A DNA stretch of 64,000 nucleotides from Eledone cirrhosa (lineage: Eukaryota). The stretch lies in assembly GCA_964016885.1 (NCBI GenBank), contig OZ024743.1:353710001-353774000 (forward strand), written 5' to 3'. This document shows positions 4,293 to 56,059 of the stretch, piece by piece (positions within the stretch are counted from its first letter, which is position 1; every line of letters starts with the position of its first letter). The notes beneath the pieces were generated by a model. The model saw only the letters and a list, made by a program, of their open reading frames with translations. It was not told where the DNA came from and searched no databases. Both the position numbers and the translations under genes were made by a program.

Positions 4293-4339
4293 TATATATA
4301 TATATATATATATGTATACACATATATATATATATATAC

Positions 4340-4436
<97 letters not shown>

Positions 4437-4604
4437 TTAAAATTTAGCTCCGACATAGATGTATACATACAAGTATTTGAATTTAGTACATCTCAATATA
4501 TTCGGTATATTTAATAAATAAACATTTGGAAAGCCTAGCTATGAATATTGAAAGGCTAACCGCTATCACCGCCTAGCGGATTCTAGCATAAGCAGCAAGG
4601 GACA

Positions 4605-4647
4605 ACTGTCTACGCGCATTTCAAGCTCTGGCTATCACCAGGACAGT
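4605..4647 (-). ncRNA. Type I hammerhead, core A6G variant
   Basis: actgtc CUGGUGA uagc-caga-gcuu GAA AUGCGCGU A gacagt. Confidence 0.65.
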
Positions 4648-4940
4648 GCTTCCCCTGTTTTCTGAGGGAACTTGAAATAGACGAAAATATATAGTTTTTG
4701 CACCTGTGTAGATGGGCTGATTAGCCTCAATTGCATATGGAGCTGTGTAAGTTGGCTCAATTTGAAAGTAGAATTAAAATTTATCCCGACATAGCTGAAT
4801 ACATACAAGTATGTGAATTTAGTATATCTAAATATATTCGGTATGTTTAATAAATAAACATTTGGAAAGCGTAGCTATGAATATTGAAAGCCTGACGGCT
4901 ATCGCGTCCTAGCGGATTTCAGTAGAAGCAGCGGGGGATA

Positions 4941-4983
4941 ACTGTCTATGCACATTTCAAGCTCTGGCTATCATCAGGACAGT
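4941..4983 (-). ncRNA. Type I hammerhead, intact core
   Basis: actgtc CUGAUGA uagc-caga-gcuu GAA AUGUGCAU A gacagt: 6-bp stem I and self-complementary stem III. Confidence 0.85.
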
Positions 4984-5345
4984 GCTTGCCCTGTTCTCCG
5001 CTGAAACTTGATACAAGCGAAAATATATAGTTTTTTTCCTGATGATTTATTTAAGAGACAATGTGAACGAGGAGACAAAATGTATATGAACATTTTGTAT
5101 CGTTGTTCGTATTGTCTGGTTGCTGTCATCTCGTCTTGTCTCATATTTTTCGGATAGCCATTGGTTTATTTCTCACTGGTCACTGCGGCGGATCTCTGGA
5201 TTCTATGTTCGCTACAACTGAAAGACAACTCGGAATGGATGGTTGAAAATGGAAACTATGTGTTTAACTCCTTGGATTTGTGTATTTATTACTTAACATT
5301 TTCATTTGACTTATTGCATTAGTTAATGCTATACAGTTACTACTA

Positions 5346-5502: not shown

Positions 5503-5569
5503 GGAGAGAGAAAGAGAGAGAGAGAGAGAGAAATTTCGTATTTCTAAAGAAACACGGTATCTTTACAGG

Positions 5570-5665
5570 AAACATTTGGGAAGCCGTAGCTATGCAAACA
5601 CCTGGGCTAACGCCCTCTGATGGTGGCCAGCAGTAGCAAGGAGGATAACCGTCTATGCATTTCAG
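5570..5665 (-). mobile_element. Diverged fragment of the 336-nt HHR family
   Basis: aacatttgggaagccgtagctatg...gataaccgtctatgcatttca matches the unit; retains the 3' HHR half GAA AUGCAU A gac. Confidence 0.5.
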
Positions 5666-5773
5666 ACTAAATAAGAATTTAGAACGATATACAATCATTT
5701 CAACCTCGTTGACTATAAATGCTCAAAGAAAATAGGTTGCGAAAAAACATTCATCAGAGCGAACTCTTAAACG

Positions 5774-5963
5774 ATAATTGTTTCTACTTTAGGCACAAGG
5801 CCAGCAATTACCCAGTGCATTACTGGTACTTTATTTTATCGACCCCGTAAGGATGAAAGGCAAAGTCAACCTCGGCGGGATTTTAACTCAGATCGTAAAG
5901 GGACGTAACTATGCTGGAAAGCATGGCGTCCGGCCCTCTACCGATACTGCCAATCCACCGCCC
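5774..5963 (-). mobile_element. Major SINE with 12-bp TSD
   Basis: Near-identical to 2144-2334; flanked by ttaaacgataat at 5767-5778 and 5964-5975. Confidence 0.9.
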
Positions 5964-13461: not shown

Positions 13462-13933
13462 AAGAGATATATTAGATATGTCTCATATGAAATAATACAG
13501 CCAATTTTCCACGCAATACTTTTAGTTAGCACCCCAAACGCTTAATTAGGATATAATCACTTATTTCCTAATGTTTGTTGAGTGAGTTGGAATTTGGCCG
13601 GAGTATCGCTAAAAAGCTTTCTCCGATATTGTATTTATTTATATATATATATATAGTTAAAAGAATAGAGGTGTAACACACAAGTTATTATATATTGGTA
13701 AACGGAATAGAAAATGCTGACAAATTGTTCACAGTTGAAAAATGGTTTAATTAGGAATAAAAGAGTATTAGTGATTGTATGGGTTAGTATTCAGTTGTGG
13801 TTTTAAGTTTTTAAGTTTTTACCGGTTGCGCATTTCTAAATGCTTTTCAAAAATAATTTTGAGATAGAGTGTCCGTGCTGTTTGCTCTGATCTGATTAGT
13901 TTTGGGAATTCTACCTGTTTTTATGTTAAAAAA

Positions 13934-14959
13934 GTGGCTCCAGCGTTATTTTTGTGTTGCAAAAATGCTTGTGGTCAAAACAATTTTGACTTCACGATGG
14001 AATACAGCCATCAACAACTCCCCTTCCTCGACATCCTCATTAAGATCCATAACAAAAAAATAGAAACAGACATATACTACAAGCCCACAGACTCCAAGCA
14101 ATATCTCCCCTTCAACTCTTGCCACCCTAGACACGTTAAAATTAATATTCCCTACAACTTAGCCAAGAGAATCTGTACTATAGTCTCCAATAAAAACATC
14201 TGCTACTTAAGGCTACAAGAACTAAACGACACACTCATAGGCAGGGACTACCCTGCATCACTAATTGACAATGGAATCCAACGTGCCCTAAAACTCAGTA
14301 CCCAGGACCTTAGACACCCTAAAGTAAATCAACCAAAACTAAAAGCTCTTCCATACATCTCCACACACAACCCCCTCAACAATGAGACCTTTGACACCAT
14401 CCTCCAGAACATCCCTGTATTGAAAAAGGACCATAAAATGAACCAAATTCTACGAACACACGATATCATAAAGAGCAAAAGACAATCCAAGTCAATGAAA
14501 AACATCTTAACACATGCCAAAGTACTGCCAACCACAACAACGAAACCCACAGTAAAAAAATGCGATAGACCCAACTGTGGCATTTGCATCAACCTAATAG
14601 AGGGTTCGGAATTCTATTTCAAAGATGGACAACGTTTTATAGTAAAACACAATTTCACATGTGCATCGGAAAATCTAATATATGTATTAACTTGTTCAGG
14701 TTGTCGAGAACAATACATAGGCCAGACCAAAAACAGCCTCCGCCAACGCATCACTGTCCATAGATCCCAAATTAAAATACGGGAATACAGGAAAATACCA
14801 CTGAGTGAACACATTGATACCTGTGCCGCTCAAAATCATCCCAACTTCAGAATCTTTCCCCTCTACAAATTTAAAGATTATGCCACCCACACCCAGCGCA
14901 TCAGCAAGGAATCTTACTTCATTAACAAATACGGACCCCGTCTAAACACTTCTCCCTAA
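13934..14959 (+). CDS. PLE RT C-terminus/thumb plus GIY-YIG endonuclease (partial; the first about 19 codons are read from the inverted arm)
   Basis: FTME..LPFLD..TDIYYKPTD..YL..NSCHP; linker C-x4-C-x2-C (CDRPNCGIC) as in the Neptune clade; LIY.LTC.GC..QYIGQT..LRQR..H...SEH...E...LN. Confidence 0.9.
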   Translation: MAPALFLCCKNACGQNNFDFTMEYSHQQLPFLDILIKIHNKKIETDIYYKPTDSKQYLPFNSCHPRHVKINIPYNLAKRICTIVSNKNICYLRLQELNDTLIGRDYPASLIDNGIQRALKLSTQDLRHPKVNQPKLKALPYISTHNPLNNETFDTILQNIPVLKKDHKMNQILRTHDIIKSKRQSKSMKNILTHAKVLPTTTTKPTVKKCDRPNCGICINLIEGSEFYFKDGQRFIVKHNFTCASENLIYVLTCSGCREQYIGQTKNSLRQRITVHRSQIKIREYRKIPLSEHIDTCAAQNHPNFRIFPLYKFKDYATHTQRISKESYFINKYGPRLNTSP

Positions 14960-20359: not shown

Positions 20360-20792
<433 letters not shown>

Positions 20793-21069
20793 ATATATAT
20801 ATATGCCAGGTCACTCTTAAGCGCTACTGGTAACATGTAACTCAGTACAACCTGTTGCATGGTCAGGTCGTCGATAACTAGACCAGTAATTCCATGAAGG
20901 GTGACATTGGAATCTAGCTGGATGAAAAACAAAACCCGTCAATGGGCGGATGAACTCATAAGAGTCAACGGCTATCAATGTGTGTGCATGTATGTATATA
21001 ATTATGTGTGATTGTGTATGTTTATTTATTTTATATTTTTTATATGTAATCTTCTCCATTTTAACTCTT

Positions 21070-23028: not shown

Positions 23029-24532
<1,504 letters not shown>

Positions 24533-50507: not shown

Positions 50508-50585
<78 letters not shown>

Positions 50586-50589
<4 letters not shown>

Positions 50590-51817
50590 GGAAAAAATGA
50601 AACGAAATTTCATTTCCCACTCTTAGTACGGCTGTTACTTAAATATAGGTATGTACACGTACATACATATATGTATACAGACGTACAGTAGTATGTACAT
50701 ATATATACATACATGCACACATATATATATGTACGTATGGATTCACCGAACATTTATTATAATGCTCGGTGTGCTTGTAAACATACATCCCGTATTAAGC
50801 CGCAGTGTCCAGCAACCATCATTGCTCGTTTGTTCAAGCACACCGAGCATTATAATAAATGTTCGGTGAATCCATACGCACATATATATATATATATGTG
50901 TGCATGTATGTATATATATGTATATACTACTGTACGTCTGTATACATATATGTATGTACGTGTACATACTTATATTTAAGTAATAGCCGTACTAAGAATG
51001 GGAAAGAATGAAATTTCGTTTCATTTTTTCCGTTCATCGGTTTCGGTGCACCCGGCCGATTAACCCACTCGATATGCAAATTGGGATACTCAGCCGTTAA
51101 TATGCATAAGGTAAGTATATACGTTCAACAATCTGGCAGGAAGGTATACGTTGCTGACGATAGCTAATAAGCTTGAAACTAGTACAGCGTTCCTTTGTCA
51201 GTGTTGAACAAACGAGCAACGATGGTTGCTGGACACTACGGCTTAATACGGGATGTTTGTTTACAAGCACACCGAGCATTATAATAAATGTTCGGTGAAT
51301 CCATACGTACATATATATATATATGTGCATGTATGTATATATATGTACATACTACTGTACGTCTGTATACATATATGTATGTACGTGTACATACTTATAT
51401 TTAAGTAACAGCCGTACTAAGAGTGGGAAATTAAATTTCATTTCATTTTTTGCGTTTATCGTTTTCGGTGCACCCGGCCGATTAACCCACTCGATATGCA
51501 AATTGGGCTACTCAGCCGTTATTATGCATAAGGTAAGTATATACGTTCAACAATCTGGCAGGAAGGTATACATTGCTGACGATAGCTAATAAGCTTGAAA
51601 CTAGTACAGCGTTCCTTTGTCAGTGTTGAACAAACGAGCAACGATGGTTGCTGGACACTACGGCTTAATACGGGATGTTTGTTTACAAGCACACCGAGCA
51701 TTATAATAAATGTTCGGTGAATCCATACGTACATATATATATATATGTGTGCATGTATGTATATATATGTACATACTACTGTACGTCTGTATACATATAT
51801 GTATGTACGTGTACATA

Positions 51818-51820
<3 letters not shown>
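50586..51820 (+). mobile_element. 422-nt HHR repeat family, locus B: inverted 5' arm plus about 2.3 head-to-tail units
   Basis: Antisense arm 50586-50837; HHRs 51148-51190 and 51570-51612 (CUGACGA uagc..gcuu GAA ACUAGU A cagcg); cleavage sites 51184 and 51606. Confidence 0.9.
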
Positions 51821-51893
<73 letters not shown>

Positions 51894-55269: not shown

Positions 55270-55321
55270 AGTTTTAAATAAACCTGAATCAATTGAATAT
55301 GGCCTCCGATCTTTTATTAAT

Positions 55322-56035
55322 ATATACTTTCAAAAGTTCAATCGACTGACAGGAAGGTATACGGTGCTGATGACAGCTAATAAGCTAGAAACTAGTTCAT
55401 CGTTCCTTTGTCAATGTTGAACAAAAGGGCAACGATGGTTGCCGAACACTGTACGGCTTAATTCGGGCTGTTTGTTTATAAACAAACCGAACATTATAAT
55501 AAATGTTCGGTAAACCCATACGTACATATATATATGTGTGCATGTATGTATATACATACTACTGTACGTCTGTATACATATATGTATGTACGTATTCATA
55601 CTTATATTTAAGTAACAGCCGTACTAAGAGTGAGAAATGAAATTTCGTTTCATTTTTTCCATTTATCGTTTTCGGTGCGCCCGGCCGACTAACTCTCTCG
55701 ATATGCAAATTAGGCTGCTCAGCCGTTAATATGCATAAGGAAAGCATGTACTTTCAAACGTTCAATCGACTGACAGGAAGGTATACGGTGCTGATGATAG
55801 CTAATAAGCTAGAAACTAGTTCATCATTCCTTTGTCAGTGTTGAACAAAAGGGCAACGATGGTTGCCGAACACTGTACGGTTTAATTCAGGGTATTTGTT
55901 TACAAACAAACCGAACATTATAATAAATGTTCGGTAATCCCATACGTACATATATATATATATATGTGCATGTATGTATGTATATACATACTACTCTACG
56001 TCTGTATACATATATGTATGTACGTATACATACTT
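55322..56035 (+). mobile_element. 422-nt HHR repeat family, locus C: about 1.7 head-to-tail units (424-nt spacing)
   Basis: HHRs 55361-55403 and 55786-55825 (ggtg CUGAUGA uagc-uaauaa-gcua GAA ACUAGU U catc); cleavage sites 55397 and 55821. Confidence 0.9.
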
Positions 56036-56059
56036 ATATATATATATATATATATATAT

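Follow-up and report, generated by a model that had tools for sequence, protein, structure and literature searches.

Animal non-LTR retrozymes, as described in the cited portions of PMC7229834, are dispersed, non-coding, low-GC repeats with a tandem unit of 150–450 bp that carries a type I hammerhead ribozyme. Retrozymes have been proposed to derive from, or to depend on, Penelope-like elements (PLEs) by Li, Clavereau and Pollet 2026 (bioRxiv 10.64898/2026.07.22.740005), who regard two consecutive units with a complete hammerhead as putatively active, and in whose hands only one of nine predicted dimers cleaved. The canonical metazoan type I ribozyme has 6 bp in helix I, four positions in helix II and 2 bp in helix III, the last with a palindromic loop, and works as a dimer (PMC4209133). 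Insertions of PLEs show inverted 5′ arms, a tail of 30–40 bp, usually at one end, and a bias towards microsatellites (Craig et al. 2021; PMC8557442). A further described hammerhead repeat, newt satellite 2, is about 330 bp long and has a reported internal Pol II promoter of the snRNA type, according to a sentence citing that work in PMC2220036.

We analysed a stretch of 64,000 nucleotides from Eledone cirrhosa, at G000:C4:353710001-353774000 (hereafter, the window; positions are those of the window), in which a first-pass annotation, made from the letters alone, had pointed to a retrozyme-like repeat with a unit of 336 nt. We consider it probable that the copy at 4436–5035 is a 5′-truncated insertion of 1.8 units from a non-coding hammerhead repeat that is old and dispersed; this repeat is likely a non-LTR retrozyme that was copied by PLE enzymes, and it is probably inactive now. 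The observations on which this reading is based are the tandem unit, the canonical type I layout, the dispersal, the PLE-type ends, the neutral decay and the homology to a second family in the window, with a unit of 422 nt.

Tandem units and ribozymes at 4436–5035

The 1.8 or so tandem units that had been noted on the minus strand were found as one full period, from 5035 to 4700, and one partial unit, from 4699 to 4436 (Table 1), which are 86.7% identical over 264 nt. The 5′ end of unit 1 is the truncation point of the insertion and was placed at the TATA-like box, while unit 2 terminates at the longer of the 3′ ends of the family, next to a (TA)n tract that is likely the insertion target. No target-site duplication was seen at this copy, an inverted arm is not present at the locus, and no LTR-bounded layout was seen at the locus or in the family copies examined. 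The longest stop-free frame within 4436–5035 is 79 aa and the longest Met-started one 37 aa, so that the copy is non-coding. The X1 contigs, which may come from the same sample as the assembly itself, cover 4529–4863 and 4958–5340 with zero differences, spanning both the unit junction and the 5′ junction.

Table 1. Positions of the 336-nt family and neighbouring features in the window
Feature	Position	Strand	Remark
Unit 1, full 336-nt period	4700..5035	-	7% from the majority of the 336-nt family
Unit 2, partial, 264 nt (unit positions 1-264)	4436..4699	-	10% from the family majority
Hammerhead 1, core intact	4941..4983	-	type I layout from a descriptor scan of the window
Hammerhead 2, A6G in core	4605..4647	-	predicted cut after 4611 (GUA)
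Extended helix I	4913..5003	-	in the family, about 16 further pairs past an internal loop
Octamer box, one base off	4729..4736	-	perfect ATGCAAAT in 25/37 family copies
GGCT-N4-AGCC box	4715..4726	-	common to the 422-nt family
TATA-like box	4684..4694	-	43 nt after octamer start (42 in the 422-type family)
TATA-like box of unit 1	5020..5030	-	its upstream octamer cut off
3′ tail, approximate, 30-35 bp	4436..4467	-	between the short and long 3′ ends of the family
(TA)n microsatellite	4293..4432	.	adjoins the 3′ end of unit 2
Relative of the 336-nt family, separate and older	5531..5668	-	runs from the 3′ half of its ribozyme to the short 3′ end

In hammerhead 1, a helix I of 6 bp (ACTGTC/GACAGT at 4983–4978/4946–4941) is followed by CUGAUGA at 4977–4971, a helix II of 3 bp plus a U·U at its base, GAAA, and a helix III of 2 bp plus a tetraloop, with the predicted cut after 4947 (AUA). 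Hammerhead 2 has the same helix I at 4647–4642/4610–4605. The earlier description of a 6-bp stem I and a self-complementary stem III thus holds at both sites, whose helix III regions read AUGUGCAU and AUGCGCGU, and the two predicted cuts are indeed 336 nt apart. The further claim that each unit bears a hammerhead stood for the type I layout, which is present in both, and did not stand for the second core, which reads CUGGUGA owing to an A6G change at 4638, where other family copies have A. A6 is a conserved base of the hammerhead core, and changing it strongly lowers cleavage; just one of the two sites is therefore intact. In the established model of a dimeric hammerhead each core cleaves the site of the other one, so that either way one site here has an intact core. 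With core 2 reading CUGGUGA, the copy falls outside what Li et al. 2026 regard as putatively active. The ribozyme layout of the family equals the canonical metazoan type I as given in PMC4209133, and both the 2-bp helix III with tetraloop and the U·U at the base of helix II also occur in axolotl HHR_Amex2, as depicted in PMC7229834.

In the family, helix I continues beyond its 6 bp; this extension is partly eroded in the window copy. We aligned 54 of 64 extracted copies (ten with large indels or poor fit were excluded), in which a 28-pair type I model including the extended helix I was 83% paired, compared with 28–51% when the model was slid along the alignment. Double-change cells numbered 34 in the same 54 copies, versus 20.5 in shuffles; they came mostly from helix II, where one pair is AU in 27 and GC in 14 of the 54, which may be a single inherited change. 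RNAalifold predicted no consensus pairs on the family alignment, and single copies folded no better than shuffles (z −0.45 to −1.07). Such weak folding is expected because the copies have decayed, and it supplies no support for the ribozyme. A scan of the window against Rfam at the gathering threshold gave zero matches. The lack of an Rfam match and the weak folding z-scores would suit a resemblance to a hammerhead that arose by chance in a minisatellite or a local duplication at the DNA level. That explanation is, however, scarcely credible, as the dispersed copies end at a constant 3′ position, show inverted arms and contain a full core whose three helices are in register, and a homologous ribozyme occurs in the 422-nt family; dispersal, pair counts and insertion ends largely refute it.

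The diverged relative that had been placed at 5570–5665 is real, and extends over 5531–5668, with 104 of 136 positions identical to the 336-nt unit (z 14.7 against shuffles). It is 5′-cut, lacking the CUGAUGA half of the ribozyme, and adjoins a (CT)n/(TA)n tract. A short, common and SINE-like repeat, about 190 nt long, lies at 5761–5960, and the window holds another 20 matches to it that are 75–99% identical.

Dispersal, age and insertion ends

We searched the genome (3.0 Gb, 1,796 contigs) for the 336-nt unit. The DNA search returned 1,667 candidates, 40 of which were scored and gave 96 matches on many contigs; among these 40 of 1,667, the top non-self matches were 79–87% identical. Exact patterns counted over the whole genome returned 17 and 29 intact-looking ribozymes, as well as 120 octamer modules and 95 internal 25-mers, with none in reversed controls. 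The unit could have been confined to this local duplication, or have been a fixed part of a longer coding element, as the first-pass annotation had cautioned. Both possibilities are refuted, since copies are dispersed genome-wide (1,667 candidates; 120 and 95 motif matches), non-coding and joined to no coding element. The search counts suggest a copy number of about a thousand to a few thousand. Organism B also carries the family, with 624 contig pieces placed at 80% or more.

Copies diverge from the family majority by a median of 12% in the sets picked by score or ribozyme and 17% in the octamer-picked set, and the identity between nearest neighbours has a median of 85.5% and a maximum of 91.3% (n=85 pieces). 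Among copies not selected for the ribozyme, the core was intact in 17 of 55. Mismatch in the core was 12.9%, against a background of 11.5% (p 0.29), indicating that cores decay at the background rate; selection on the ribozyme after insertion was thus not seen. The loci hold a median of about one unit and a maximum of 3.1; two units were reached in 2 of 56 and 0 of 29 loci, and no long arrays of the unit were found among the loci examined. Given identities of at most 91%, decay of the cores at the background rate and about one unit per locus, the 336-nt family is old and looks extinct, as it probably is.

Adjacent intact cores on the same strand were present at only two (L021 and L062) of 14 loci with two ribozyme spans. 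At L062 (G000:C4:228843495-228843750) the two intact-core ribozymes are 214 nt apart, a spacing that reflects a unit shortened by an internal deletion of about 125 nt. These two loci, the 29 intact-core motifs genome-wide, and unit 1 itself, which has an intact core and ranks with the copies nearest to the majority (7%), would be expected if the family remained active and young source arrays produced circular RNA, to which 4436–5035 may contribute; the DNA search, moreover, scored 40 of its 1,667 candidates. We nevertheless regard continuing activity as very improbable. The whole-genome exact patterns (17, 29, 120 and 95) show no clusters of identical copies, compared with 22,192 matches for the module shared with the 422-nt family (see below), the best non-self identity is 91%, and core 2 of the window copy has A6G.

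The ends of the insertions were analysed in 87 copies that an internal motif had selected without regard to where their 5′ ends lay (90 of the 95 motif matches were taken, from which two same-locus duplicates and one presumed segmental duplicate were dropped; there is some overlap with the earlier sets). An inverted arm was found at the 5′ end in 34 of the 87. The 3′ ends fall into two clusters, at unit positions of about 225–250 and 264–272, some 35 nt apart. Both outer ends lay at canonical 3′ positions in 17 inversions; 11 of them combined a long and a short end, six were short/short and none was long/long, a pattern that places a tail of 30–40 bp on one end. Among the first 28 loci of this set, a microsatellite lay within 60 nt of 24 of 39 3′ ends, versus 3 of 17 5′ ends; the corresponding counts in the other sets were 48 of 110 3′ ends and 11 of 60 5′ ends, and the value for background windows was 13%.

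The cut site was passed by 53 of the 87 copies, and 29 extended over more than one period, so the template must have been a ligated circle or an uncut tandem RNA, and the read-through is equally compatible with either. A pile-up of 5′ ends at the cut site, hinted at initially, was not confirmed on the 87, in which three ends lay within 3 nt versus 2.1 expected (p 0.34); three apparent ends near the cut site are alignment breaks of a subfamily with a shorter helix III region. Nine 5′ ends cluster at the TATA-like box, versus 3.1 expected (uncorrected p 0.005, post hoc), which may reflect microhomology with TA-rich targets. Scars of A-to-I editing were also sought, in 188 pieces with CpG and polymorphic columns left out, and showed no excess (A>G 0.036 versus T>C 0.044 per site on the element strand; ratio 0.80). 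Without a peak of 5′ ends at the cut site or an excess of A-to-G changes, the insertions give no direct sign that their RNA template had been cut or edited.

Relation to Penelope-like elements

The marks of insertion in the family are those of endonuclease-bearing (EN+) PLEs as described in the cited parts of PMC8557442 and PMC4209133: partial tandems, an inverted 5′-truncated arm, a tail of 30–40 bp, a bias towards microsatellites and a hammerhead within the repeat. In contrast to these PLEs, the 336-nt family has no ORF and its hammerhead is canonical rather than minimal. No ORF with reverse transcriptase (RT) and GIY-YIG lies within the unit or is joined to it; the element is non-autonomous.

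The genome contains 10,597 GIY-YIG candidates, including long RT plus GIY-YIG ORFs. No autonomous PLE with the 336-nt unit as its terminal repeat was found in 50 GIY-YIG loci (of 150 listed among the 10,597 candidates). Matches near the ends of PLEs at L078 and L082 proved to be nested insertions of a related repeat rather than the PLE's own end. The one at L078:2440-2890, a further related hammerhead repeat in head-to-head arrangement that shares the 3′ region of the 336-nt family, sits in a TA tract directly behind the 3′ end of a PLE. Protein matches to PLEs were seen near family copies in 3 of the loci L001–L076 and, in a second count, in 6 of 117 loci, and none of these matches represented an endonuclease terminus attached to a unit. 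As queries for PLE proteins, 19 ORFs were used, mostly from young families, and a decayed partner could therefore be missed.

Most loci hold about one unit with PLE-type ends, and retrozymes of frogs match PLE terminal repeats (pLTRs) in the cited part of Li et al. 2026 (bioRxiv 10.64898/2026.07.22.740005). The copies could accordingly be truncated pLTRs of an extinct autonomous PLE rather than a separate retrozyme. We think this unlikely, because upstream of a unit lies another unit and not coding sequence, because the few protein matches include no joined endonuclease end, and because the ribozyme is canonical and not of the minimal PLE type.

A non-LTR retrozyme remains our preferred reading. 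At the level of sequence, the family falls within the definition of animal non-LTR retrozymes as given in PMC7229834, with which it shares the type I hammerhead, a non-coding unit (336 nt; GC 37.8%), dispersal and the presence of PLEs in the same genome. Unlike the retrozymes described in that source, it is old and decaying, with mostly about one unit per locus and without long arrays. The extended helix I and the octamer/TATA module are additional to the features of retrozymes described in the cited parts of PMC7229834 and bioRxiv 10.64898/2026.07.22.740005. Among the papers listed on octopus retrozymes, hammerheads and Penelope, and on retrozyme promoters, we found no published description of the family, although supplements or repeat databases may list one. 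We regard it as a new member of a described class, one that is probably extinct.

Several different hammerhead-like motifs occur near the ends of young PLE families (L109–L121), none like that of the 336-nt family. Separately, a 240-nt imperfect palindrome at 20561–20800 of the window holds a third type of hammerhead, with a long AU-rich helix I, a core reading CCGAUGA and a long helix II; it is weakly related to the intact-core one in L117 at 6851. The window also contains a young, 5′-truncated Penelope-like element at 13868–14959 (plus strand), a 363-aa open frame with a C-terminal GIY-YIG domain that is 97.5% identical to the PLE ORF of L121.

The octamer/TATA module and its possible role

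In both the 336-nt and the 422-nt family an octamer, a GGCT-N4-AGCC box and a TATA-like box precede the ribozyme core, from about 100 nt upstream, and are followed by the same helix II. The upstream module alone aligns between the families at z 5.6, and the body downstream of the ribozyme is borderline (z 1.8). The body of the unit had been described as showing no obvious similarity to the 422-nt family; this fails for a stretch of 130 nt that comprises the ribozyme and the sequence upstream of it, and downstream the similarity is only borderline. Likewise, the proposal of two retrozyme-like lineages in the window survives in so far as the 336-nt family is distinct, and not in the sense that the two are unrelated. 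Judged from these alignments, the 336-nt family is a distant relative of the younger 422-nt family.

The two share the octamer, the GGCT-N4-AGCC box, the spacing of the TATA-like box, helix II (UAGC...GCUU) and the palindromic loop of helix III, and differ in helix I, helix III and the body. A subfamily of the 336-nt repeat (L008, L021, L202, L210, L275 and the window copy at 5531–5668) has a helix III region 2 nt shorter, with a 4-nt loop region that resembles the 422-type ribozyme, and is possibly intermediate between the families. The 422-nt family is young and far outnumbers the 336-nt family; in a set of 30 loci, of which some belong to one array, its nearest neighbours are 99.4% identical over 160 nt. 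The module common to both families has 22,192 exact matches in the genome, and the matches listed are 422-type. In the window, 422-type insertions lie at 23063–24454, 50584–51827 (50828–51824 serving as the family example) and 55321–56042, two of them with inverted arms.

The octamer-to-TATA spacing is 42 nt in 28 of 30 422-type loci. It is 43 nt in 8 of 29 loci of the 336-nt family, 17 of which have no recognisable box and four other spacings. The spacers between the two boxes match poorly across families. The constant spacing suggests a DNA-level promoter; alternatively, the module may have a role as an RNA hairpin rather than as a promoter. A start 25–30 nt past the TATA-like box would coincide with the beginning of the extended helix I. 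Coats, Zhang and Epstein (1994) reportedly found that the promoter of newt satellite 2 includes an octamer. Like that repeat of about 330 bp, as portrayed in PMC2220036, the 336-nt family combines a hammerhead with a candidate internal promoter module; in contrast, its predicted promoter has the octamer 42–43 nt from a TATA-like box.

We propose that in ancestral source copies the internal octamer-plus-TATA promoter would have started transcription at the beginning of the extended helix I, some 25–30 nt past the TATA box, and that the RNA would have read into the next unit. Each of the two ribozymes would then have cut it, probably in dimeric form, given that helix III has 2 bp with a palindromic loop, and the 336-nt monomer would have been ligated into a circle. 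The endonuclease and reverse transcriptase of a PLE may have nicked a microsatellite and primed at a fixed point about 140–180 nt downstream of the cut site, and the copying would have run back across the cut site, so that the insertions came to have inverted arms and 5′ ends that vary. The sole octamer of the copy at 4436–5035 lies between its two ribozymes and carries one mutation; with this and the A6G change in one core, release of a monomer from it is predicted to be poor.

Tentatively, and with somewhat less than even confidence, the 336-nt family may be viewed as an extinct older sister of the young 422–480-nt retrozymes; in both, the start would be set at the first base of the long helix I by an octamer and a TATA-like box with four helical turns between them. 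Such elements would be RNA circles that supply their own promoter and live as parasites on the enzymes of Penelope elements; one family would succeed another in waves, and the geometry of the promoter would be what they conserve at their core.

Taken alone, 4436–5035 is a decayed repeat. The ends of its family record insertion of the Penelope type, which the retrozyme literature, in the parts cited here (PMC7229834; bioRxiv 10.64898/2026.07.22.740005), proposes without mechanistic evidence. As an old outgroup, the family marks the parts that have persisted for long, namely the octamer, its spacing to the TATA-like box and helix II, and these parts give a testable answer to how protein-free elements are transcribed.
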